From contig OY970350.1 of NCBI GenBank assembly GCA_963718045.1, forward strand, positions 30,001 through 62,000: 32,000 nucleotides of DNA, in the 5' to 3' direction. How positions within the stretch are numbered: position 1 is the first letter of the stretch; each line of letters opens with the position of its first letter. The position numbers and the translations under genes are program-made. Source of the DNA: Candidatus Saccharimonadota bacterium. GTDB lineage: Bacteria; Patescibacteriota; Saccharimonadia; Saccharimonadales; UBA4665. Positions 250-24,486 of this stretch are shown piece by piece. Below the pieces are notes generated by a model that made no database searches, was not told the origin of the DNA, and saw only the letters and a program-made list of their open reading frames with translations.

Positions 250-1299
250 ATGATCACTAGCCTAAAGGTTCAAAACTTCCGCTCCTATCTGAACAGCTTG
301 TTTAACTTCAGCCCATCAGCCAATATTATTGTTGGGCCAAATACTGCCGGGAAAACTAATATTTTAGAAGCCATACTTTTCTCACGAACCGGCTCGTCTT
401 ACCGGGCTAAAGATTTGGAGCTAATACGCTTTAAAAAGAGCTGGTTAAGGATTGAATGCGAAGATGATGGCAGTAAAAGGATAATTAAGGTCAGGAATGA
501 CCAAAAACCCAACAAAACATATGAGATTAATGGCAAGCAATATAATAGACTGCCCATTAGTTTAAAACTGCCGGTAGTAATATTTGAACCCAACCACTTA
601 CAGCTTCTTAGTGGCTCGCCTGAAAAGAGGCGCAACTACCTTGATTCTTTCCTGGCCCAGCTGGCAAGCGAATACCCTTCTCTTATTAGAAAGTATGCCC
701 GCGCTCTCGCTCAGCGAAACTCCTTACTTAAAAGGCCGGTTGGTATAACAAATTCCCAATTATTCCCCTGGAATATTCGTTTGAGCCAATTGGCCGGGCA
801 GGTAGTCCAGGCAAGAAACAACCTTATTGTTGAGATAAACAAGACCCTGCCGGATATATATATGGGTCTTTCTAAAGATAAGGTTAGACTTTTAATGACA
901 TATAAAACACAGTTTGACCCTAGAATGTACGAGACTTCTTATTTGAAACAGCTGGAGAGTGATTTAGAGGACGACTTAAGAACCGGCTTTACGCTTCACG
1001 GCCCGCATCGTGATGATTTCACTGTTCTATATAATAATCATCCATCCACGAGCTATGCTTCGAGGGGTGAGCTTAGGACTGCTGTTTTGGCCCTAAAAAT
1101 AACTGAACTTAATAAGCTAGATAATATTAAAGGCACTAAACCAGTGATACTGCTAGATGATGTATATAGTGAACTCGATAGTGTTAGGAGAAAGTCGTTA
1201 ACCGGCTATTTGAAAGACAATCAATCCTTTATTACTACGACAGACGCTGACGTGGTCTTAAAAAATCTGGATATTAAAAGTAAAGTTATTGAACTGTAG
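250..1299 (+). CDS. recF: DNA replication/repair protein RecF
   Basis: 349 aa. It has Walker A GPNTAGKTN near the N-terminus, an SMC/ABC-like signature SRGELRT and Walker B VILLDDVYSELD. It lies immediately downstream of dnaN. Confidence 0.9.
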   Translation: MITSLKVQNFRSYLNSLFNFSPSANIIVGPNTAGKTNILEAILFSRTGSSYRAKDLELIRFKKSWLRIECEDDGSKRIIKVRNDQKPNKTYEINGKQYNRLPISLKLPVVIFEPNHLQLLSGSPEKRRNYLDSFLAQLASEYPSLIRKYARALAQRNSLLKRPVGITNSQLFPWNIRLSQLAGQVVQARNNLIVEINKTLPDIYMGLSKDKVRLLMTYKTQFDPRMYETSYLKQLESDLEDDLRTGFTLHGPHRDDFTVLYNNHPSTSYASRGELRTAVLALKITELNKLDNIKGTKPVILLDDVYSELDSVRRKSLTGYLKDNQSFITTTDADVVLKNLDIKSKVIEL

Positions 1300-3268
1300 G
1301 CTGAGACGGCGGAGTACCAGCGGGGTTGATGTCTACTGTTTGTTCTACAGGCGACGCAGGACCAGCAGGTGTTACTGCTGGTCTTTCCCTGTCATAAAGG
1401 GATACTGGCGCTACATTCTGGCTGTTATCAACACCCGGGGTAGTAGTTATGAGGCTTGTTTCTGTCGGGCTGGCAACAACTTGGATATGGACATGGTTTT
1501 GGCCAGCAAAGAATAATCCCTGGCCGACCGGGAACTGGCTTAATCTCTTTTTCTCTTCGCTGGTTAACTTAAAAACATCAGACAGTACATCTACCGCTGA
1601 AGTAGACTGTTTAAGCAGAAACTGCATCGAAGCGTTAGCCACGACTGCCCTGCCCATTCTGGAACCCATAAAGTCTTCAACATCCTGGGTAACGGTCGTA
1701 ACTCCTAAATTATATTTTCTGGCTCTTTTAGCCAGACTATATAAGAAATTGGCTGAGTCCTCATACTTCATTAACTGCCAAGCTTCATCAATAATTAAGA
1801 TCCGGCGTTTTTGGTCTATCTTTGTCTTGTTCCAAATGTAATTTAAGACGATGTACATAGCGACAGGCCTTAGCTCATCTTCAAGATCGCGAATATTAAA
1901 TACTGCCATGGGGTTATTAATGTTTATATTTGACTGCTGGGAGAAAATACCGGAGAAGGTGCCGGTTGTATACTTTCTTAACCTTTGGGCTAACTGCGGA
2001 CCGTTACCGCCCATATGCAGCAGTGTGTCATAAAGGTCATTTATAGTTGGCGGCTGTGAACGGTGAGTCAGCGGGTCATTAGTAATGCCAGCCCTCGCAT
2101 AGGCCTCAATTAGAGCAGCATCCAGGTCCGCCTCTTCACTGGGAGCCAGTACTGGTACGGCTGTTGCCGCACCACCTAACATCTGAGTCTGGGCACCACC
2201 CATCATCAGTCTGAGCAGTCCATGAAGTGTAATAAGGTTACTGCGGAGGGCATTGTCCGCCTCTTCAGTATCGACTACTTCCGGTAGGTCGAAAGGATTA
2301 ATTCTGGTCGCCGAGCTGAGGCTTAACCGGACATAAGCTCCGCCAACGGCATCACACATTTTCTGGTATTCATTTTCCGGGTCAATAATGAATATTTCAG
2401 TACCGAACATCATACTTCTTAAAGCTTCTAGTTTTACAAGGAAAGATTTCCCGGCTCCAGACTTTGCAAATACAACTGAGTTGCCATTTTCCAGAGAGAA
2501 CCTATCAAATATTACCAGGCCTGAATTATGCATATTAATGCCGTATAAAATACCGCTGTCCTGGCTTAAGTCAGCGCTGGTGAATGGGAAACTAGTGCTT
2601 AGTGCTCCAGTGCTCATGTTCCTTCTAATTTGCAGCAGGTCAGTCATTTGGGGGACTGTACTGTTAAAAGCTTGTTCTTGCTGAGAAGTGGCCGGTTTTG
2701 AATAAACAAGCTGTTGGCCAAGTAGTGACTCAACTTTATGGCTAACAAATTCCAGTTCTTCCATGTCGCCGGCGTAAATTGTGAAATAAAAGCCAAAGCG
2801 GAAGAACCTTTCCTCTCCCACCTGCAGTTTATCCCGCATCTCTTCGGCATCTAATATGGCCGCCTGTTTTTCCGGGTCCCTGACCCTGCCCTTGTCGGTG
2901 TCTATTTGAATACCGGCTTCAAGTCTGGTAACTTTCTTTTTTAAATTCTCAAGTACTACCCTGCTTTCTACCGGGTAGATATACAAACTAAGATCCATAA
3001 CTTCATCCAGGTTGACCATCCCAGACAGCCAACCGGTGTATAGATTTCGCGGGTACCCATATACGTAGTAAGTGCGGGCGTATCTTGTACCCAGCAAGAA
3101 GTATGTTGAACTATATTCAAGTGAGCTGGGGGCAATAAAATCCCGAAGTGCGGTGATACCCTTTTGGTAAGCTGTCTCAACCTCATGCTCTTCTTGTTGC
3201 TGATGCTGTTGGGCAATGGTTACCGGATCAACGCTTGAAGTTGCACTTTTATTCTTAAAAATAGCCAT
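1286..3268 (-). CDS. virB4: Type IV secretion system ATPase, VirB4/TrbE/PrgJ family
   Basis: 660 aa. It has Walker A FAKSGAGKSFLV and Walker B RILIIDEAWQLM. Its length and the long N-terminal domain before the P-loop are typical of VirB4-type ATPases. An SD-like AAGGGAG lies upstream of the ATG at 3268. The C-terminal tail is proline-rich. The gene overlaps the recF 3' end by 14 nt (convergent). Confidence 0.88.
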   Translation of the reverse strand: MAIFKNKSATSSVDPVTIAQQHQQQEEHEVETAYQKGITALRDFIAPSSLEYSSTYFLLGTRYARTYYVYGYPRNLYTGWLSGMVNLDEVMDLSLYIYPVESRVVLENLKKKVTRLEAGIQIDTDKGRVRDPEKQAAILDAEEMRDKLQVGEERFFRFGFYFTIYAGDMEELEFVSHKVESLLGQQLVYSKPATSQQEQAFNSTVPQMTDLLQIRRNMSTGALSTSFPFTSADLSQDSGILYGINMHNSGLVIFDRFSLENGNSVVFAKSGAGKSFLVKLEALRSMMFGTEIFIIDPENEYQKMCDAVGGAYVRLSLSSATRINPFDLPEVVDTEEADNALRSNLITLHGLLRLMMGGAQTQMLGGAATAVPVLAPSEEADLDAALIEAYARAGITNDPLTHRSQPPTINDLYDTLLHMGGNGPQLAQRLRKYTTGTFSGIFSQQSNININNPMAVFNIRDLEDELRPVAMYIVLNYIWNKTKIDQKRRILIIDEAWQLMKYEDSANFLYSLAKRARKYNLGVTTVTQDVEDFMGSRMGRAVVANASMQFLLKQSTSAVDVLSDVFKLTSEEKKRLSQFPVGQGLFFAGQNHVHIQVVASPTETSLITTTPGVDNSQNVAPVSLYDRERPAVTPAGPASPVEQTVDINPAGTPPSQPTVQ

Positions 3269-3269
3269 C

Positions 3270-4142
3270 TTACTCTAGCTCCCTTTGCAAGTGGCTTTGA
3301 GGGGCAGTGCCCTCACCCTTAGTTATTACGTCAGCTGAAAGATCGTCAAAGTTTTTAAGCTGCTGGCGAGTAGCAGTATCTGGGTTATATGTGTCGTAGT
3401 AAAGCTCAATTAATTCCTGTGTATCTAGAGGCAGGCCCTGAATATTACATTGGGCTAAGGCTGCTAGGATTGCCTGTACTCTGTTTCTAAGCTCTGTTTT
3501 AGCTTGTTCAAGATCTTCTTCGTTTATAACAACGTGCTGTTCCTTGGTATTGAATAGGCCGACTAAACCAGTTAGAAAATTCTTACTTTCGGTTAGTGCC
3601 TTTTGGATATCTTCATGCGGGAAGAACGGGATGACTACATAGAACTTCTTATCCATAATGTTTGTCTGCTGGCTTAAAGAATCCATATAATTGATGTAAT
3701 CTTCCATTAATAGGGCAAGCAGCATATTGTCGTGTTCAGTCCGAATTTTGTCCAGTCTTTCTATATAAGGCTGTAGATCAACTTTTTGAGTCCTGACAAA
3801 TATTTGAATGGTAAAGTAAAGAGAATTCAAAAATCCCTGGTATGAATATTCAACAGCTTCCTGTTCTTGGGTGCTCATCAGATCAAAGTTAATACTTTTT
3901 ACCATGATGACAGACCTAAAAGAGCCGTCGTTCATTATTACTATGCCGTCTCTTATCTCAGCGATTTGGAGTGTATTTTGAGTGCTATTAGGGTTGGTTT
4001 TAGGTTTTGGCTGGGCAGGAAGCTGCCCCGCTACTGGCTGATAACTAGGTGTGTAGCTAGGCGGTACAGGCGGTAAATTAGCACTACCCGGTAAGCCGGT
4101 TACGGCTGGTGTTGCTTGATTTATATTGTTTGTTGGATCCAT
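3270..4142 (-). CDS. Hypothetical T4SS-associated protein (Pro-rich N-terminal tail; body reminiscent of a VirB4 N-terminal domain)
   Basis: 290-aa ORF packed between the PrgI-like gene and virB4 (1 nt from the virB4 start). An SD-like AGGTGGG lies before the ATG at 4142. The first ~60 aa are P/Q/T-rich and low complexity. The function is inferred only from position and pattern resemblance. Confidence 0.7.
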   Translation of the reverse strand: MDPTNNINQATPAVTGLPGSANLPPVPPSYTPSYQPVAGQLPAQPKPKTNPNSTQNTLQIAEIRDGIVIMNDGSFRSVIMVKSINFDLMSTQEQEAVEYSYQGFLNSLYFTIQIFVRTQKVDLQPYIERLDKIRTEHDNMLLALLMEDYINYMDSLSQQTNIMDKKFYVVIPFFPHEDIQKALTESKNFLTGLVGLFNTKEQHVVINEEDLEQAKTELRNRVQAILAALAQCNIQGLPLDTQELIELYYDTYNPDTATRQQLKNFDDLSADVITKGEGTAPQSHLQRELE

Positions 4143-4159
4143 AGCCCACCTATATCTAA

Positions 4160-5164
4160 TTAATGAGGTATTAAGACTTCAACCATGCCGGTGTTATCTG
4201 GTTTGGCCCTGTCGGCTTCTTTAGAAATAACACTGACGTTTAAGTCGTTTCTTTTCGATAAGTTCATTATAACAGGATCAGGCTGAGGAGCGGCTAGCGG
4301 TGGTTCCGGAGCTATTACGGCAGCTGGTTTACTACGAGTCTTGGCTACTTTGCTTCTTAAAGCGTGCATATTGCTTAAAGGTGCACGGCTTGACTGGTAG
4401 GCATCCTTAAGTTCGGCGTCTATTTCACGTTCAAAAGAAGGTGACACGGCAGCTGTAGGTTGCTTAGGGGTACCTATGACTAGTGGTTCTTTATGCCTTT
4501 TTGCTACTTCAGCCCTAGTTTCATTCAGATTATCTATTAACTCCCGGTGTCTTAAGCTGGTGTCAGCTGACAGCATTCTATTAAACTGCTGGGCAATTGG
4601 ATTAGCTAAATCATTAAATAGGTCTTCTGAGTCGGGGACATCATATTCTGGCACTGCCTGAGGTAAAGTAGCCGGGCTAATTAACCTGTCTGAATCTTCA
4701 TCGTCATTAACAAGTGGCGACTGATAGGCGACATTTACGTTCTTAATAGCCCACCCGCGGCTATCTATAGTAGAAGCCAGAGCCTGAAGTCTTGATTTTA
4801 CTTCATTTTGCGATAGGCCATTAGTTTTTTGCATTTCAATTTTCTTCGGAACTGTTATGGTAACTAGTTCTTTAACACCGCTTTGGGCCCAGATACGGTG
4901 CCTTGGTTTTAAGAAAAACCTTAGTTTAGAAAGAGCCCATAATTCGGTCGGCTGGTCTTTACCAAAAGGATAAGCTAAGAACCCGGCAAACAAAGCTATT
5001 GGCATGGTGACAATGTCTAAAATCCCAGCGTGATGTGCAAAAAGGACATAACTAATATAAAGCATGAATAAGGCTGCCAAGGCATAGACAAATTGTTTGA
5101 AACTTAAAGGACCTAGAAGTTTGTCATCAGCTTCAACATCTTGGATAAGCTTATATGTTGCCAT
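4160..5164 (-). CDS. PrgI/VirB3-like T4SS membrane protein with long C-terminal extension
   Basis: I start it at ATG 5164 (MATYKLIQDVEADDKLLGPLSFKQFVYALAALFMLYISYVL...), not at the ORF-track start of 5419. The N-terminus has the PrgI-family pattern: an acidic stretch, K-L-L-G-P-L-S-F-K-Q-F, then two TM helices. The 85-codon upstream extension overlaps the divergent pilin gene and its promoter. A TATACT box lies 9 nt upstream of the ATG. Confidence 0.72.
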   Translation of the reverse strand: MATYKLIQDVEADDKLLGPLSFKQFVYALAALFMLYISYVLFAHHAGILDIVTMPIALFAGFLAYPFGKDQPTELWALSKLRFFLKPRHRIWAQSGVKELVTITVPKKIEMQKTNGLSQNEVKSRLQALASTIDSRGWAIKNVNVAYQSPLVNDDEDSDRLISPATLPQAVPEYDVPDSEDLFNDLANPIAQQFNRMLSADTSLRHRELIDNLNETRAEVAKRHKEPLVIGTPKQPTAAVSPSFEREIDAELKDAYQSSRAPLSNMHALRSKVAKTRSKPAAVIAPEPPLAAPQPDPVIMNLSKRNDLNVSVISKEADRAKPDNTGMVEVLIPH

Positions 5165-5222
5165 ATAACAATAAGTATAACACCTTGTATGAGAGCAAAT
5201 ATAAGGATATAATTTGATCAAA

Positions 5223-5753
5223 ATGGCAGCCAAAAAACTAAAACATTTTAAAACGCGTAAACTTTTACTCCTACCCTTTTTAGTTATAAGTCTGTTTTTC
5301 GTTATTGGCAGTTTCAGTTTGGCAAAGACAAACTCTCTATTAAACGAAAGTTGTCCCAGGGGAGCTAGCTGCCAGATATCCAATATTCGTTTAGCAAATG
5401 GGTGTGGTGCTGGCAGCACCTATGTGAAGACTAGTATTAATTTTGGTTGTTATGGCAACGGCTGTGGTAGTTCAACTACTGGCTATGCATCGACTAGTTA
5501 CTGTTCCAATCCTCACAATGGTATTGTTGATCTCTTGTTTGCCATCATCAGATTTTTATCCGATGGTGTTGGTCTAGTAGTAATAGTGTCAGTAATTATT
5601 GGCGGGATACAATACATCACATCACGAGGTGACCCTAATGCCACAGGAGCGGCCATAAAGAGACTTACCTCAGCCCTGACTGCATTACTTATCTTTATAT
5701 TTGCTTACGCAATACTTAATTATGTAATACCAGTAGGATTCTTTAAGCAATGA
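5223..5753 (+). CDS. VirB2/TrbC-like T4SS pilin paralog 1 (enlarged Gly/Cys-rich head, 6 Cys)
   Basis: ATG 5223 is preferred over the TTG at 5214. It has a signal-like N-terminus (KLLLLPFLVISLFFVIGSFSLA) and a Cys/Gly-rich segment. This is followed by TM1, the loop GGIQYITSRGDPNATGAAIKR and TM2, the hairpin typical of VirB2/TrbC pilins. Confidence 0.72.
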   Translation: MAAKKLKHFKTRKLLLLPFLVISLFFVIGSFSLAKTNSLLNESCPRGASCQISNIRLANGCGAGSTYVKTSINFGCYGNGCGSSTTGYASTSYCSNPHNGIVDLLFAIIRFLSDGVGLVVIVSVIIGGIQYITSRGDPNATGAAIKRLTSALTALLIFIFAYAILNYVIPVGFFKQ

Positions 5754-6112
5754 ATTTAGGACAAATATTACTCAACCAGCATTTTGCAGCAGCTTGCGTG
5801 CAAAATAAATTTTTAAACTTTCCAACCTGGTATGAATATTTATCCTGCACAGGTTCACCGAAATCCCCGGAGTTAACCAGTCTTTCAGACATCTGGCTTA
5901 TTGTTGCCGCTATAGTAGAAATACTGCTTCGGGTAGCCGCCCTAGCTGCTATTGGCATCATAATTTATGCCGGTATTCAGTACTCAACCAGCCAAGGCAA
6001 ACCGCAGGAAACTTCTAAAGCCCTAAGCACAATAATAAATGCGGCTATTGGTCTTACTGTATGTATTTTGTCGGCCGTAATTGTAACCTTCATTGCCGGG
6101 AGCTTTAAATGA
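5750..6112 (+). CDS. VirB2/TrbC-like T4SS pilin paralog 2
   Basis: 120 aa. Its start overlaps the upstream stop (ATGA). The core is AAIGIIIYAGIQYSTSQGKPQETSKALSTIINAAIGL, flanked by two hydrophobic helices. The N-terminal part carries a Cys pair. Confidence 0.7.
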   Translation: MNLGQILLNQHFAAACVQNKFLNFPTWYEYLSCTGSPKSPELTSLSDIWLIVAAIVEILLRVAALAAIGIIIYAGIQYSTSQGKPQETSKALSTIINAAIGLTVCILSAVIVTFIAGSFK

Positions 6113-6429
6113 TCCCATCAATTTTTCTAAGATTACTTGCATCATCTACAGTTTCTGTTAACTGTCCTGGCGACGGGACCTGTGATACTGGTTTGCCGAA
6201 AGTTACCGCTGATTCAAGTGCGCTCCATACGGCTCTTGAGATATTCTTCGGTATAGCCGCTGTCATATCTGTATTAATGATCGTTATTGGCGGCTTGAGT
6301 TTTGTAACTTCAGGCGGCAAACCGGAAGAAGCTGCAAAAGCCAGAGAGACTATCATCTATGCCGCTATTGGCCTGCTTGTTTCTTTAAGTGCCGAAGCGG
6401 TTGTAGCATTTGTGTTAGGGAAGTTATGA
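6109..6429 (+). CDS. VirB2/TrbC-like T4SS pilin paralog 3
   Basis: 106 aa, with an ATGA start/stop overlap and SD-like GGGAG upstream. The core is VLMIVIGGLSFVTSGGKPEEAAKARETIIYAAIGL. The Cys pair is in NCPGDGTC. Confidence 0.7.
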   Translation: MIPSIFLRLLASSTVSVNCPGDGTCDTGLPKVTADSSALHTALEIFFGIAAVISVLMIVIGGLSFVTSGGKPEEAAKARETIIYAAIGLLVSLSAEAVVAFVLGKL

Positions 6430-6821
6430 AAAAAGTAATATTATCCATCATTTTATTAATGTTAACTACCCTGTCTTTTAGCCAGCCAGCTTTTGCCGTT
6501 AACATTTTCCAAAGCTGTACTAATGGCGTACTAGCCGGTAAGCATACCGATGTCTGTAGTGCTGTAGCAACACAGCAAAAAAATGGTAATCCAGATCCAA
6601 TTCTGGTGGCCCTAAAGACCACTATTGATGTCATATCATACATTATCGGTGTTGCTGCCGTTATTGTTTTAATTATTGCCAGTATTGAGATGATTATTGG
6701 CGGGGGTGATGCTCAAGCTATAGCTACCGCCAGAAACTCAATTATATACGCCCTTGTAGGTATTGTTGTTGCTGTACTAGCCCAGTCAATCGTAGTTTTC
6801 GTATTAAAGAACGTAGCGTAA
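6426..6821 (+). CDS. VirB2/TrbC-like T4SS pilin paralog 4
   Basis: 131 aa, with an ATGA overlap. It has a clear signal peptide MKKVILSIILLMLTTLSFSQPAFA and a Cys pair (SCTNG...DVCS). The core is LIIASIEMIIGGGDAQAIATARNSIIYALVGI. Confidence 0.75.
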   Translation: MKKVILSIILLMLTTLSFSQPAFAVNIFQSCTNGVLAGKHTDVCSAVATQQKNGNPDPILVALKTTIDVISYIIGVAAVIVLIIASIEMIIGGGDAQAIATARNSIIYALVGIVVAVLAQSIVVFVLKNVA

Positions 6822-6822
6822 A

Positions 6823-7260
6823 ATGTTTAAGGTGAAATATTTCAAAATAATTGTGGCTGTAATCACTATTGTGACCATGTTTTCTGCTACCCTTAACTAT
6901 GCCTCTGCCGATTCTTTTGTTGGTGAGGCCTGTAATGGCATAAAAAGCATATCGACTACGGCCAGCTGTACTAAATCCAACGTATTACAAAGCACTGCCC
7001 ATAAAGTGGTCAATATTATGTCCATAGTTGTAGGACTTATTTCAGTAATAATGTTACTGGTAGCTGGTATAAAGTTTGTTACGGCCGGAGGTGATTCGAA
7101 CTCTGTTCAATCAGCCAGGAATACTCTCATATATGCGCTAATAGGTGTATTTATTGCTGTACTTGCTCAGGTGCTTGTTCGCACGGTATTAAATACGGCC
7201 ACTTCAATCCAGAATAATAGTTACCTTAACACATCCTCAGTTATTAAAAATGATGTTTAA
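6823..7260 (+). CDS. VirB2/TrbC-like T4SS pilin paralog 5 (S/T/N-rich C-terminal tail)
   Basis: 145 aa, starting 1 nt after the paralog 4 stop. The signal peptide ends in ...NYASA and the Cys pair is EACNG...ASCTK. The core is KVVNIMSIVVGLISVIMLLVAGIKFVTAGGDSNSVQSARNTLIYALIGV. Confidence 0.75.
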   Translation: MFKVKYFKIIVAVITIVTMFSATLNYASADSFVGEACNGIKSISTTASCTKSNVLQSTAHKVVNIMSIVVGLISVIMLLVAGIKFVTAGGDSNSVQSARNTLIYALIGVFIAVLAQVLVRTVLNTATSIQNNSYLNTSSVIKNDV

Positions 7261-7343
7261 AAACACTATTAATTTATTGTAGAATTATGTACTATTGGAA
7301 ATATGGATAAAAAACCTAAAATAACTAACCTGGGGGGTTAATA

Positions 7344-7787
7344 ATGTTAGATATATTAAAAAGTAAACTTTTAATCATCGTGGCTGCACTTATGATGAGT
7401 ATTCCGGTGATAGTTCCAATTCAGGTGTCAGCTAGTGTCAAATGTGATAATATAGGCGGCCAGATAAACAACGGCATTAACTCTGCTGTTAGTAGTAATG
7501 TTGCCTGTGGTACTGGTGGGAGTATCGATACTGGCGTAGAATCACTGGCTAAAAAAGTAGTCAATATCTTTTCCTTAGTTGTAGGTGTTATCTCAGTAAT
7601 AATGATCATTTACGCTGGACTGAGATACATAACTTCTGGCGGAGAGAGTGGTGGAGTATCAGGAGCAAAAAATACTCTTCTCTATGCGGTTATTGGTTTG
7701 ATTATAGTTATCCTAGCTCAAGTTATAGTTAGAATCGTTCTTAACCAAGGCACCAGTATTAGCAACACTGTAACTTCTGGCACTTAA
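7344..7787 (+). CDS. VirB2/TrbC-like T4SS pilin paralog 6 (S/T-rich C-terminal tail)
   Basis: 147 aa, with its own SD (GGGGGG, 7333-7338) after an 83-nt gap. It has a signal-like N-terminus and a Cys pair (VKCDN...VACGT). The core KVVNIFSLVVGVISVIMIIYAGLRYITSGGESGGVSGAKNTLLYAVIGL is nearly identical to that of paralog 5. Confidence 0.75.
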   Translation: MLDILKSKLLIIVAALMMSIPVIVPIQVSASVKCDNIGGQINNGINSAVSSNVACGTGGSIDTGVESLAKKVVNIFSLVVGVISVIMIIYAGLRYITSGGESGGVSGAKNTLLYAVIGLIIVILAQVIVRIVLNQGTSISNTVTSGT

Positions 7788-9031
7788 CTCTGGACGTAAG
7801 TAGTTAATAAGTAGAAGTTTGTAACACCTGATCCTAGTAGAAGTATTTTCATGCCTGTAGAGAGATTACCGGTATTCTTACGGTAAATCATCATTAGCGC
7901 CAGGAAGAGGGTTGGCATGAAGTCGAGAGTATAGCGGTAGCCAAGCTGGTCTGCCCCATCGCCGAAATAGCAGAGTACTATCAAAAGACCGACTAATGAA
8001 GAAATAACTAAGTATTTAGCCTCTTTGGGATATTTTGACCATCTTTTGGTAAAGAAATATAAAAGCCACGGTGAAGTAATAAAGATACTTACACCCAACA
8101 TGTTATTTTCTACCCACGGGAATTTCAGGCTCCATGAACTGCTTGAGGCTAGTTCCTGTGACGGTGCCCTAAAGAGTAAGGTATATAAGTTAGTTGGGAT
8201 GTGATCCAATGAGAAAACACCCATTGATCTTGCTTCAGAAGAGCCCTGAGATAACAGCTGATATTGGTTGCCGTTATCTAGAGGGCTGCCAAATCTTTGC
8301 AGGTTATATACTCCCATAAGCAAGACGGCTAAGACTACGAATACTCCCAACTGGAACAACTCTTTAAACTTGACTCTCCATTCTTTCTTAGCCATGGCTA
8401 TAGCAATAACGTAAAATACTAAAATACTAGCTGCCGGTATTCTGGTTAGCAGTAAACAGGCAGACAATAGTCCTATTAACCACCACCTTTTCCTGTTCAT
8501 ATATTCATATAACGACCACAAGGCCAATAGTGTGGCAACAATCTGGGCATATAGCCAGCCGCTTGAAACACTACCGACGCCCATAAAGACTGAACCTAAG
8601 GTAAAACCAAACATCCAAATCAGACTATCTGTGGCCGAAAAGCCAAGCTTTCGGGCCATTTTATATACCAAGTAGCTAATACTTAAAATTATCAGCCACT
8701 TTATATATCCCTGATAGAAAAATATGTGCCAGATATTAAAGAAGGCTACAAAAGGCATTAATATAACAGCCGGGAATGGGCCTTCATCCCAGTAAACCTT
8801 GCCATTGTAAAGAACGGGGTCTTGCCCTACCCCGCCGATAGATTGAAGGAAATAAGTGTGCCCGTGATCAAACGAATTAGCAAGAAGTGAAAACTGCTGG
8901 CTGCCTTCAGCAGCAAAGCCAACACATATGAGGGTAATATATAAGATAATTGGTACGCAAAAAATCAGAATCTTTTTAGTCGTGCTTTTATCTACTACGA
9001 AAGTTTTTTTCTGGAATAGTTTTTCTTTCAA
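7784..9031 (-). CDS. Polytopic membrane protein, GT-C-fold glycosyltransferase-like (ArnT/PMT-type)
   Basis: 415 aa with roughly 10 or more hydrophobic helices. The first extracytoplasmic loop has the pattern DPVLYNGKVYWDEGPFPAVILMP seen in ArnT/PMT-like GT-C enzymes. It uses a TTG start at 9031 preceded by SD GAGGTGG. Family assignment is by pattern recognition only. Confidence 0.55.
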   Translation of the reverse strand: MKEKLFQKKTFVVDKSTTKKILIFCVPIILYITLICVGFAAEGSQQFSLLANSFDHGHTYFLQSIGGVGQDPVLYNGKVYWDEGPFPAVILMPFVAFFNIWHIFFYQGYIKWLIILSISYLVYKMARKLGFSATDSLIWMFGFTLGSVFMGVGSVSSGWLYAQIVATLLALWSLYEYMNRKRWWLIGLLSACLLLTRIPAASILVFYVIAIAMAKKEWRVKFKELFQLGVFVVLAVLLMGVYNLQRFGSPLDNGNQYQLLSQGSSEARSMGVFSLDHIPTNLYTLLFRAPSQELASSSSWSLKFPWVENNMLGVSIFITSPWLLYFFTKRWSKYPKEAKYLVISSLVGLLIVLCYFGDGADQLGYRYTLDFMPTLFLALMMIYRKNTGNLSTGMKILLLGSGVTNFYLLTTYVQS

Positions 9032-9070: not shown

Positions 9071-9553
9071 TTAAAGAACTTCAATTTTCTTAACCGTATC
9101 TTGTTTAACTTTACCGAAACTAATGGTTAGGACGCCGTCCTTTAAAACTGCTTCAATCTCTTCTTCCTTAACAGGTACAGGCAGGGCTATGGTTCGTGAG
9201 AATTCGCCCCAGTAACATTCTTGAAGGAAATAGTTCTCAACGCCCTCTTCGTTACCGGCGTTAAGAGTACCCCTGACTGTCAGCTGATTGTCTGAGATGC
9301 TGACATCCAGCTCATTCTTGTTGACTCCTGCAGTCCTGGCTTTAACAATAAGCTTCTCTTTTGTTTCATAAACATCGACAGCCAATTGTCCCGGGACACT
9401 GTCTTCTTCGTCCCACTCCTCAGCAGTTGGCCCTTCAGGGGCAGGCTGAGTATCGTTATTAGTGTTAGTTGCAATGTCTTCTTCACCAAGAAAGGCAGCA
9501 GCTAGTTCATCATCTTCTTCTAAGAGAAGATCGTCATCGCGGTGTCGCGCCAT
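9071..9553 (-). CDS. Small heat-shock protein, Hsp20/alpha-crystallin family
   Basis: I start it at ATG 9553 (MARHRDDDLLLEEDD...), which is preceded by SD GGAGGG 9 nt upstream. It has an acidic N-terminal region followed by an alpha-crystallin domain: GQLAVDVYETKEKLIVKARTAGVNKNELDVSISDNQLTVRG...LPVPVKEEEIEAVLKDGVLTISF. Confidence 0.9.
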   Translation of the reverse strand: MARHRDDDLLLEEDDELAAAFLGEEDIATNTNNDTQPAPEGPTAEEWDEEDSVPGQLAVDVYETKEKLIVKARTAGVNKNELDVSISDNQLTVRGTLNAGNEEGVENYFLQECYWGEFSRTIALPVPVKEEEIEAVLKDGVLTISFGKVKQDTVKKIEVL

Positions 9554-9556
9554 AAT

Positions 9557-9599
9557 AGTTACCCTCCAAAATTTATATACCTTACTTTTTAGGGTTACT
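9557..9599 (-). promoter_or_regulatory. Candidate SD-sequestering hairpin (RNA-thermometer-like) in the hsp20 5' UTR
   Basis: On the mRNA strand, AGUAACCCU (9599-9591) can pair with AGGGUAACU (9565-9557), giving 8 of 9 bp with one A-A mismatch. This covers 4 of the 6 SD nucleotides. An A5/U4 pair of runs inside the loop could extend an imperfect stem. Confidence 0.35.
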
Positions 9600-9619
9600 T
9601 GCCTTTTTGTATTTCCTGT

Positions 9620-9649
9620 AGTATAGCTTAGCCTTTCAAGCAAAAGCAA
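9620..9649 (-). promoter_or_regulatory. Predicted hsp20 promoter (TTGCTT-18-TATACT)
   Basis: On the minus strand, the -35 TTGCTT (9649-9644) is separated by an 18-nt spacer from the -10 TATACT (9625-9620). This predicts a leader of about 60 nt that contains the hairpin. Confidence 0.4.
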
Positions 9650-10347: not shown

Positions 10348-10437
10348 GGAGAGGTGACCGAGTGGTTGAAGGTAGCACTCTTGAAAAGTGCCATATCGGC
10401 AACGGTATCGTGGGTTCGAATCCCACCCTCTCCGCCA
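10348..10437 (+). tRNA. tRNA-Ser (anticodon UGA), CCA encoded
   Basis: It folds by hand. The acceptor is GGAGAGG/CCTCTCC, the anticodon arm is GCACT-CTTGAAA-AGTGC (anticodon TGA), and there is a long variable arm. The T-arm is GTGGG-TTCGAAT-CCCAC, with discriminator G and a terminal CCA. Confidence 0.93.
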
Positions 10438-10453
10438 TATTTACTAATTGTAG

Positions 10454-10531
10454 GCGCCCGTAGCTCAGCTGGATTAGAGCGCATCCTTGCGGAGGATGAG
10501 GTCGTAGGTTCGAATCCTATCGGGCGTACCA
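10454..10531 (+). tRNA. tRNA-Arg (anticodon GCG), CCA encoded
   Basis: It folds by hand. The acceptor is GCGCCCG/CGGGCGT (G1-U72), the D-arm is GCTC-AGCTGGATTA-GAGC, and the anticodon arm is CATCC-TTGCGGA-GGATG (anticodon GCG). The T-arm is GTAGG-TTCGAAT-CCTAT, with discriminator A and a terminal CCA. Confidence 0.88.
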
Positions 10532-10636: not shown

Positions 10637-11506
10637 ATGATTAGTACATATAATCGAAACAGAATTGCTAGGCTCAAAAAAGAATTCGAGCAACTTAGAA
10701 TTGGCAAAGATTCGCTGCTCATTTTATTAGAGGAAGCCGAGCTACCAGAATTAGTATATAACTCTAACGCTATTGAAAACTCTACCCTAACACTTAAAGA
10801 GACAGAGCGAATATTACTTGAACTTGAAGTTGCTAGGAATGTAAGCGTACGGGAATTATTTGAGGCCAGAAACCTAGCTAGAGTTATTGAATATTTGCAA
10901 AATCATCAAAACCTCGAGATCAACAAAGAAAATATCCTTTTGTTACACCGAATGCTTATAGGTGGCATTAAGGATGAGATCGCCGGAAGATTTAGGAGAA
11001 ATGACGAATATGTGCGCGTTGGAACGCATATAGCTCCTGCCCCGGAACATATTGAGCAATTGCTTGATAATCTTTTGGTTGAATATAGGAGCGCGGATAA
11101 TAGTTATTTTATAGACCGTATTACATACTTCCACTTGGAATTCGAACGCATTCATCCATTTGTCGATGGTAATGGACGGATTGGGAGAGTACTGCTAAAT
11201 TTACAGCTCAAACAACTTGGTTATCCACCAGTTATTATCCGAAGTAAGGGCAAGATCGATTATTATTATCCGGCATTTATTGAATATCAGGAGCTCAAAC
11301 ATACTAGTCGGATGGAGCATTTGGTTATGTTAGCAACTATCGAATCCTTGAATAAACGTTTAACATATTTACGCGGGCAAAACGCAGTAAAACTTGCTGA
11401 CTATGCTAAGACAAAAAAACAATCCATAAATACCCTTATCAATGCTGCTCGGAGGCAAACAATTCCTGCCTTTCGAGAAAAGGGTGTTTGGAAAATTGGA
11501 ATATAA
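10637..11506 (+). CDS. Fic family protein (class II, intramolecular inhibitory motif), with C-terminal excisionase-like HTH
   Basis: 289 aa. It has the Fic active-site motif HPFVDGNGRIGR and an N-terminal inhibitory-helix motif SNAIEN, which matches (S/T)xxxE(G/N). The C-terminus KLADYAKTKKQSINTLINAARRQTIPAFREKGVWKI resembles an excisionase/MerR-type HTH. Confidence 0.88.
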   Translation: MISTYNRNRIARLKKEFEQLRIGKDSLLILLEEAELPELVYNSNAIENSTLTLKETERILLELEVARNVSVRELFEARNLARVIEYLQNHQNLEINKENILLLHRMLIGGIKDEIAGRFRRNDEYVRVGTHIAPAPEHIEQLLDNLLVEYRSADNSYFIDRITYFHLEFERIHPFVDGNGRIGRVLLNLQLKQLGYPPVIIRSKGKIDYYYPAFIEYQELKHTSRMEHLVMLATIESLNKRLTYLRGQNAVKLADYAKTKKQSINTLINAARRQTIPAFREKGVWKIGI

Positions 11507-23436: not shown

Positions 23437-24486
23437 ATGACTAGCATGTTAGATGATCTCAAGTTAATCCATGAGAGAGATGTATCGGATACTTTAGGTA
23501 TTGCTGAAAGACAGTGGCAGCAACTTAATGAAGTCTTTGACATTGGCGATATACCCTCAGATTTTGAGAATATTGTTTATAGCGGCATGGGAGGATCTGC
23601 CCTCGCGGCCCTAATTAGTGTTAGCTGGCCCGGATACCATATTCCATTTCAAATAGTTAGAGGCTATGACATCCCAGCTTATGTGTCAGACAAGACGCTT
23701 TTTATAGCCTCCAGTTATTCTGGTAATACTGAAGAAACTGTCAATGCTTTAAACGAGGCTAGTAAAAAGCAGGCTAAAATTGTTGTTATTGGCGGTGGGG
23801 GCAAGCTAGAAGAGATAGCCAGAAGCAATAACTACCCGTTTGTCCGAATACCTAAAGCCGAACAGCCCCGATATGCCGTGCTATATAACCTTAAAGCACT
23901 AGCAGATATCTTAGTTAAAACTGGTCAGCTAGACGTACAAAAGGTAAGTGGCGAACTTAAGCAGGCGGCTGAGTTTTTAGAAGGCATATCTAAACGCTGG
24001 CAGGCCACTGTTCCAACTACAGACAATCTGGCCAAGCAGATAGCCCTTGAAGCAGCCGGTAAATCAGTTGTTATTTACGCCGGTCCGCTGCTCGCTCCGG
24101 CAGCCTATAAATGGAAGATAGGCTTTAATGAGAATGCTAAACAAATTGCCTGGTGGAATCAGTATCCCGAATTTAATCACAATGAATTTATTGGCTGGAG
24201 TGAACAGCCGCCAATTAAACCCTATCTTGTAGTTGATCTGAGAAGTAATTTAGAGCATCCTAGAATTCAAAAGAGATTTGAGCTATCTGCTAAGCTTCTT
24301 TCCGGGAAGCGGCCAGAGCCGGTAGTTATTAACGCTGAAGGCAGTAATATTTTAGAGCAGCTGCTGTTTGCCTCAACACTTGGTGACTTCACGTCTCTCT
24401 ATTCGGGGATCCTGGCTGGTTTAAATCCAGCACCAGTTGACTTAGTTGAGAAGTTTAAAAAAGAGTTAGCCGATAATGCCGGATAA
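23437..24486 (+). CDS. Bifunctional phosphoglucose/phosphomannose isomerase (SIS-domain, archaeal-type PGI/PMI)
   Basis: 349 aa. It has the SIS-domain motifs GMGGSALAA and SSYSGNTEET, and its size and C-terminal half are typical of the PGI/PMI family. Confidence 0.78.
   Translation: MTSMLDDLKLIHERDVSDTLGIAERQWQQLNEVFDIGDIPSDFENIVYSGMGGSALAALISVSWPGYHIPFQIVRGYDIPAYVSDKTLFIASSYSGNTEETVNALNEASKKQAKIVVIGGGGKLEEIARSNNYPFVRIPKAEQPRYAVLYNLKALADILVKTGQLDVQKVSGELKQAAEFLEGISKRWQATVPTTDNLAKQIALEAAGKSVVIYAGPLLAPAAYKWKIGFNENAKQIAWWNQYPEFNHNEFIGWSEQPPIKPYLVVDLRSNLEHPRIQKRFELSAKLLSGKRPEPVVINAEGSNILEQLLFASTLGDFTSLYSGILAGLNPAPVDLVEKFKKELADNAG

Follow-up and report, generated by a model that had tools for sequence, protein, structure and literature searches.

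Six tandem VirB2-like pilin genes at a Saccharimonadales type IV secretion locus occupy conserved positions and probably encode non-redundant subunits

The DNA analysed here, referred to as the window, is a stretch of 32 000 nucleotides from a Candidatus Saccharimonadota bacterium (contig OY970350.1, positions 30 001–62 000). Between positions 5223 and 7787 its forward strand carries six consecutive small genes for VirB2-like pilins of a type IV secretion system (T4SS), numbered genes 1–6 and, by their places in the array, p1–p6. Gene 1 (p1; 5223–5753) encodes 176 amino acids from its ATG, with an alternative start possible at a TTG codon upstream, at 5214; its product has a leader, a long Cys-rich head with six Cys residues, and two transmembrane segments separated by a loop. 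Gene 2 (p2; 5750–6112; 120 amino acids), with a Cys pair in its head, and gene 3 (p3; 6109–6429; 106 amino acids), with the shortest head, have no convincing leader. Gene 4 (p4; 6426–6821; 131 amino acids) has a classical leader ending in AFA and a Cys pair, and gene 5 (p5; 6823–7260; 145 amino acids) a leader ending in ASA, a Cys pair and a polar C-terminal tail. Gene 6 (p6; 7344–7787; 147 amino acids) is the most conserved of the six and the candidate major subunit. An earlier note on this DNA, made from its letters, had described genes 1–4 as joined by ATGA stop/start overlaps (at 5750, 6109 and 6426), gene 5 as starting 1 nt beyond gene 4, and gene 6 as following an 83-nt gap with its own Shine–Dalgarno (SD) sequence; we read all of this in the sequence as claimed, the SD being G-rich. 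A search of the window with a hidden Markov model (HMM) of the six cores (E ≤ 1e-3) turned up no pilin gene beyond these six. Antisense open reading frames (ORFs) in the array, such as those at 5743–5961, 6105–6356 and 6365–6643 on the reverse strand, were treated as spurious because they lie wholly inside conserved pilin genes.

About 72 C-terminal residues of the six proteins can be aligned as a common core, in which three columns are invariant: G136, a glycine in the turn, and A144 and A151, two alanines at the start of the second helix. Kyte–Doolittle profiles gave two hydrophobic segments with a short polar loop between them in all six proteins, and in the alignment every one of the six inter-helix loops contains a lysine or arginine. 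In the AlphaFold2 prediction for gene 6, with a mean pLDDT of 73.7, the leader and the head each form a helix, the latter a short one, ahead of a long helix–turn–helix with helices at residues 61–97 and 102–143 and a turn of four residues. Hydropathy and model together back the two-helix hairpin that the earlier note had proposed as the common core, and this part of the proposed architecture holds for all six proteins; the N-terminal leader it assigned to each is not convincing in genes 2 and 3, and its loop consensus fits genes 3–6 well but genes 1 and 2 only roughly. Core identity within the array is 21–36% for every pair except p5/p6. The heads, which had been called unrelated in sequence, have more in common than that: a Cys pair occurs in every head in the window (with six Cys in gene 1), and the heads of p4–p6 are partly alignable.

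Searched against PF18895 (T4SS_pilin; curated cut-off 26.6 bits), genes 2–6 scored 39.9, 45.5, 36.8, 47.3 and 41.7 bits, respectively, and all 111 aligned p6-type homologues matched the same family. Gene 1 fell below the cut-off (23.9 bits, E = 4.5e-5), but a profile of the p1 orthogroup matched the p6 profile with 99.1% probability (E = 5e-19) in a profile–profile comparison, by which we judge gene 1 to be homologous to the pilin family despite its score. Matches to PF04956 (TrbC/VirB2; cut-off 27.9 bits) were weak, with 27.8 bits for gene 6 (E = 3e-6), 22.7 bits for gene 4 (E = 1e-4), 14.7 bits for gene 1 and no match for genes 2, 3 and 5; among the p6-type homologues, 87 of 111 matched this family at E ≤ 1e-3, the best at 4.3e-9. 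Together with the neighbouring VirB4 and PrgI/VirB3 genes described below, these matches uphold the identification of the six genes as VirB2-like T4SS pilin paralogs. It might be argued instead that they encode unrelated small membrane proteins (holin-, bacteriocin- or transporter-accessory-like) that resemble pilins through hydrophobic composition, given some weak, spurious matches to other membrane families and the fact that the only sequence matches in the PDB were to unrelated membrane proteins at E > 0.3. Five scores above a curated cut-off, a PF18895 match in each of the 111 homologues and the strict linkage of the pilin genes to VirB4/PrgI in about 50 genomes effectively refute that explanation.

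The array diverges from these neighbours. A 58-nt intergenic region (5165–5222) separates p1 from a gene on the reverse strand for a PrgI/VirB3-like membrane protein (4160–5164; 334 amino acids from the ATG at 5164, the length also called in the source contigs; PF12666 PrgI, 31.6 bits). On the same strand lie genes for a TraC-like/TrsD-like protein (3270–4142; 290 amino acids), which has a weak PF11130 TraC_F_IV match, a precomputed PF26593 TraC-like match on an identical gene and 68–83% identity in relatives, and for a VirB4-type ATPase (1286–3268; 660 amino acids; PF19044 TraG P-loop at 99 bits, AAA_10 and a weak CagE_TrbE_VirB match), the start of which is 1.95 kb from the start of the array. 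This VirB4 is 80–88% identical to the VirB4 of many Saccharimonadales metagenome-assembled genomes and is followed by recF, with dnaN and dnaA next in the source contigs; for these reasons we assign the locus to the origin-proximal, chromosomal T4SS of Saccharibacteria. There can be little doubt that the array is the pilin operon of a T4SS of this Patescibacteria type in a member of the Saccharimonadales, orthologous to SEML1_0014-0019 of Ca. Southlakia epibionticum ML1. No relaxase or coupling protein domain was found in the window ORFs scanned.

For comparison, 80 related loci were gathered through VirB4 and their ORFs searched with the HMM of the six cores. Pilin genes were present in 50 of the 80 loci, with exactly six in 30 of them, which together with the window gives 31 six-gene arrays. 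The best cross-genome match lay at the same position in 918 of 930 comparisons for p1, 929 for p2, 856 for p3 and 918 for p6, and same-position scores across genomes exceeded cross-position scores within one genome. In a neighbour-joining tree of the cores, p1, p2 and p3 were each monophyletic (31/31), and p4, p5 and p6 together formed one clade (93/93). The p1 to p6 order was also kept in all 20 arrays with other gene counts, some of which are cut by the end of the locus and others of which contain fusions or extra p6-type copies, making the gene order fixed across 51 arrays (the window and 50 loci). As judged from these sequence comparisons, the six genes are ancient positional orthogroups.

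The closest paralog of p6 in the window is p5, and the earlier note had taken their cores to be nearly identical, even in nucleotides, and had concluded that the two arose by recent duplication. Over a 75-codon core, however, they share 57% of amino acids and 58% of nucleotides (46% over the full length), high nucleotide identity being limited to a 51-nt patch (7003–7053 against 7554–7604; 84%), and each has its own position, p5 before p6, in all related arrays. The modest identity and the conservation of both positions across species do not support a recent duplication. The p5–p6 scores within genomes are barely higher than those between genomes (100 compared with 90 bits), and there has therefore been little concerted evolution at most.

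Conservation is uneven, both along the proteins and between positions. Heads evolve fast, with 9–26% identity among orthologues compared with 37–62% for cores; the highest core identity, 62%, is that of p6, the other positions having 37–50%. The Cys pair of the head is kept in most p2, p4, p5 and p6 orthologues. Leader hydrophobicity is weak in the orthologues of p2 and p3 (median maximal Kyte–Doolittle score of the head, KD15, 1.27 and 1.0, against 2.3–2.5 for the others), and the missing leader of genes 2 and 3 is a conserved property of their orthologues. The pilins are far more diverged than VirB4 (identities of about 42–48% compared with 80–88%).

Two kinds of departure from the six-gene plan were found. 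Extra copies were all p6-type, in one locus with seven genes (L020, 1476–2350, reverse strand) and one with nine (L060, 602–2590, reverse strand); as the extra copies in L060 are p6-type and each is set off by its own short spacer, they suggest that only the candidate major pilin has been duplicated. In addition, neighbouring genes are fused in frame, p2 with p3 in five species (L015, 1219–1899, reverse strand; L024, 535–1215; L030, 1889–2695; L057, 1858–2511; L067, 2208–2900) and p1 with p2 in one (L040, 2529–3359), and in three cases the fusion was confirmed by translating the sequence. The fusion ORFs carry two complete pilin domains, giving four-helix tandem pilins, and fit an arrangement in which both termini lie outside and p3 is leaderless.

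Fast-evolving heads, pilins that diverge more than VirB4 and duplicated p6-type genes could each be expected if the paralogs were alternative or variable major pilins, that is, interchangeable surface variants for different host strains or for escape from recognition, a role proposed for virB2 families in Anaplasma and Bartonella and, in passages of Quinonero-Coronel et al. (2025, Microb Genom, PMC12102498), suggested for Patescibacteria. Yet stable orthogroups at p1–p3 and p6, in an order fixed across 51 arrays, are unexpected for antigenic cassettes, and the fusion of neighbouring paralogs in six species, the systematic lack of a leader in p2 and p3 and the essentiality of all six genes in ML1 (PMC10633639) also argue against interchangeability. 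The lineage-specific interchangeable variants and changing copy number of an antigenic family were not seen among these arrays, in which only the number of p6-type genes varies, in two loci. We therefore consider it very unlikely that the array as a whole is a set of variants, a reading that is possible for the p6-type duplicates.

The spacing of the sixth gene is also conserved. In the 31 six-gene arrays the p5–p6 spacer has a median of 73 nt, whereas the other junctions, from p1 to p5, mostly overlap or are 10 nt or shorter. Among 30 such spacers, a −10-like TATAAn occurs in all 30, extended to TGnTATAA in 20, a TTG at −35 distance in 26 and a purine-rich SD, typically GAAAGG, in 29, a pattern that can be written TTG..TGnTATAA..GAAAGG. 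The window's own spacer (7261–7343, forward strand) has promoter-like hexamers and a G-rich SD, with candidates TTTAAA-18-TAGAAT (7256–7285) and TTGGAA-16-TAAAAT (7295–7322), but the window as a whole has no more promoter-like sites than expected from shuffled sequence, and the case for a p6 promoter comes from conservation across the loci rather than from the window's own sites. The terminator scan picked out a single site, inside gene 4, and none after gene 5 or gene 6. At the other end of the array, the divergent region at 5165–5222 contains TTGTAT (5185–5190) and, 17 nt on, a perfect TATAAT (5208–5213) that ends 9 nt before the ATG of p1; the pair is missing from the output of the consensus scan because its −35 element matches at three of six positions only. 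This region may be a promoter, a function we infer from these elements, and because the TATAAT is 9 nt from the ATG, with no SD between them, the gene 1 mRNA may be leaderless or near-leaderless.

The fixed orthogroups, the p6 spacer, the restriction of extra copies to the p6 type and the fusions lead us to favour an explanation in which the six proteins are non-redundant T4SS pilin subunits of one machine and not interchangeable variants, and we regard this as probably the best overall account of the array. Of the three functional ideas raised in the earlier note, a heteromeric set is accordingly the one we retain, in its non-redundant form, and antigenic diversification and alternative filaments for different hosts are set aside, except possibly for the p6-type copies.

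Each gene encodes a small VirB2-like protein in which a variable head, predicted to be extracytoplasmic and in most cases carrying a Cys pair, precedes two membrane helices joined by a short lysine/arginine-containing loop. How such subunits might work together is a matter on which we place even chances. Genes 1–5, closely packed on one transcript and probably coupled in translation, would be expressed at low, fixed ratios, and p6 would have a promoter and a strong SD of its own in addition, which would make it the major building block. The pilins would be inserted in the membrane with their termini outside and the loop inside, p1, p4, p5 and p6 by way of a cleavable leader and p2 and p3 without one. 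They would next be pulled out of the membrane by the VirB4/PrgI machinery and built into a heteromeric tube or pilus on the cell surface, in contact with the host bacterium. Put in its most specific form, the proposal is that of an obligately heteromeric VirB2-type structure built from six ancient classes, with p6 as a separately promoted major subunit, p1–p5 as minor subunits, present in fixed ratios, that serve in priming or form the base or tip, and p2 and p3 as direct neighbours, the last because of the natural p2+p3 fusions; this version we offer tentatively, as one that may well prove wrong. The comparative details nevertheless turn a vague idea about host range into a specific model, with one major subunit and five minor ones, that can be tested.

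The same proteins might stay in the cytoplasmic membrane, or span a thin wall, as parts of a short hetero-oligomeric conduit or stalk that forms no filament. Monoderm T4SSs generally lack a pilus according to the literature (passages of PMC12102498 among the sources), no T4SS pilus is reported for Saccharibacteria in the papers cited here, and a fixed, stoichiometric-looking operon, tandem fusions that yield proteins with four transmembrane segments and the lack of a significant fold or PDB sequence match to solved pilus subunits would all suit a channel. The genes are, however, homologous to pilus-forming families (PF18895 and, for 87 of 111 p6-type homologues, PF04956); the separately promoted and most conserved p6 suggests one subunit in excess, as for a polymer, and the fast-evolving, Cys-containing heads suggest surface exposure. 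We consider a conduit without a filament unlikely.

Several observations weigh against the favoured model of pilin subunits in a heteromeric filament. None of the solved VirB2/TraA pilins was matched significantly in a structure search, and profile searches of the PDB, with 6 and with 111 sequences, returned only unrelated membrane proteins (E > 0.3). Over the 72-column core p4 and p5 often match p5 or p6, and p4–p6 are not cleanly separated. The p5–p6 spacer of the window fits the conserved promoter pattern less well than do the spacers of its relatives, and the window's locus is without the VirB6-like and cell-wall hydrolase genes that are present at the locus in most relatives. No filament of these proteins has been reported, and the function of the Saccharibacteria T4SS is described in the literature as completely unknown. 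Finally, the essentiality of upstream genes in the transposon sequencing (Tn-seq) of ML1 could reflect polar effects on downstream genes.

The gene content of the locus deserves separate description. In typical relatives, and in ML1, a VirB6-like gene (about 950 amino acids) and another gene lie between PrgI and p1, and M23-like and lysozyme/NlpC genes follow VirB4. In one such relative (L001; 3766–7832 and 11998–17694) the counterparts are a VirB6-like protein of about 946 amino acids, a 324-amino-acid gene product, an M23-like protein of 1097 amino acids and a lysozyme/NlpC protein of 397 amino acids. With the VirB6-like, M23-like and lysozyme/NlpC proteins of L001 as tblastn queries, no counterpart was found in the window, L013 or L049, and the T4SS locus of the window (1286–5222) is a compact variant, as are those of L013 and L049. 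Another relative (L072) has its VirB6-like gene downstream of VirB4. The genes missing from the window's locus may lie in another part of the genome; for the VirB6-like protein, the best 120 of 167 homologues included no match on the contigs of the present genome.

Beyond the array, a gene on the reverse strand (7784–9031), convergent with gene 6 and overlapping it by 4 nt at the stop codons, encodes a polytopic membrane protein of 415 amino acids that matches DUF2079 weakly, at a sub-threshold 25.2 bits. Only the compact loci, those of the window, L013 and L049, have this gene between p6 and the Hsp20 gene. The Hsp20 gene itself (9071–9649, reverse strand) is found next to the pilin array in every relative as well as in ML1, whose copy was scored essential. 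A Fic/DOC-domain protein is encoded near the locus (10637–11506, forward strand). The genes for tRNA-Ser(tga) and tRNA-Arg(gcg) at 10348–10531, the only Rfam matches in the window, mark a spot that varies between strains (compare L082, 12954–16522, and L083, 12954–20444): one near-identical strain contig carries an insertion of ApbE and an NQR-like gene between the 185-amino-acid ORF and the Fic gene, and another strain contig has a serine recombinase and an Eco57I/ResIII-type restriction island at the tRNA spot, which looks like an integration hotspot. In some ENA contigs with an identical gene 6, from other assemblies of the same strain (L081 and L084), VirB4, PrgI and one pilin gene appear broken into fragments; these breaks are most likely long-read frameshift errors and not marks of pseudogenes, given that the sequence is intact in other contigs. 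The remaining genes of the window are housekeeping genes (ValRS, TsaD, Mur ligase, GroEL, ArgRS and DnaG).

Compared with the VirB2/TrbC/TraA pilins of the Agrobacterium T-pilus, RP4 and F, the proteins of the array share a leader (genes 2 and 3 excepted), two hydrophobic helices and a short basic loop, and homologues of virB3 and virB4 are encoded alongside in both cases. The classical systems have one major pilin gene and a diderm envelope, whereas here there are six conserved paralogs in a monoderm; unlike those systems, the window encodes no VirB5, relaxase or coupling protein. To our knowledge, no characterised VirB2 pilus is heteromeric, those known being homopolymers with a VirB5 tip. 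Type IV pili and the pseudopili of type II secretion systems combine one abundant subunit with conserved low-abundance paralogs that are encoded together in a fixed order; the analogy with the array is functional only, as protein fold and assembly machine are unrelated.

Several divergent tandem copies in a T4SS involved in host interaction are also a feature of the virB2 families of Anaplasma and Bartonella (passages of PMC12102498), the copies of which are viewed as variable surface antigens, whereas copies of the window type are stable, ordered orthogroups. The available passages of the same paper report 441 VirB2 arrays of 2–11 genes in 383 Patescibacteria assemblies, especially common in Saccharimonadia and with a mean identity of 25%, and read their diversity as possible host-range or antigenic versatility and adaptation to different hosts. 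The window agrees with these arrays in gene number, a nearby virB4, the lack of a relaxase nearby, proximity to dnaA and low identity, although the identity of its p5/p6 cores (about 57–58%; 46% over the full length) is slightly above the stated array maximum of 54%. Positional orthology, the p6 spacer and fusions do not feature in those passages, and pilin fusions receive no mention in the parts of the cited literature that concern these arrays. Such arrays are also discussed in a 2025 FEMS review (PMC12857230).

The closest known system is that of ML1, described by Wang et al. (2023, Cell, PMC10633639), and the novelty that the earlier note had implied for a set of six pilins falls away with it, a six-gene Saccharibacteria pilin array being already known. 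The Saccharibacteria T4SS is, according to the literature, the only monoderm-type T4SS with pilin genes, and is essential for epibiotic growth in the one species tested. The ML1 tables list the PF18895 genes SEML1_0014-0019 in an uninterrupted run of six, preceded by VirB6-like genes, PrgI, a small protein and VirB4 and followed by Hsp20, and all six scored essential at later time points of the Tn-seq experiment ('GD ES ES'), an essentiality that applies to ML1 only. Both arrays consist of six tandem PF18895 genes of about 100–185 amino acids on one strand, divergent from PrgI, the small protein and VirB4, with recF on one flank and Hsp20 on the other, and both have an 83-nt gap before the last gene (in ML1 from 23631 to 23715). 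They differ in that ML1 and most relatives encode an NTF2-like protein and two large VirB6-like membrane proteins in the interval from PrgI to the pilins, and a lysozyme and a large protein after VirB4. All are missing from the window's locus, which has the DUF2079 gene after p6 instead. Because the array has already been published, the window is another orthologous instance of it; what it adds is a sharper, testable model of the six pilins and a compact variant of their locus.

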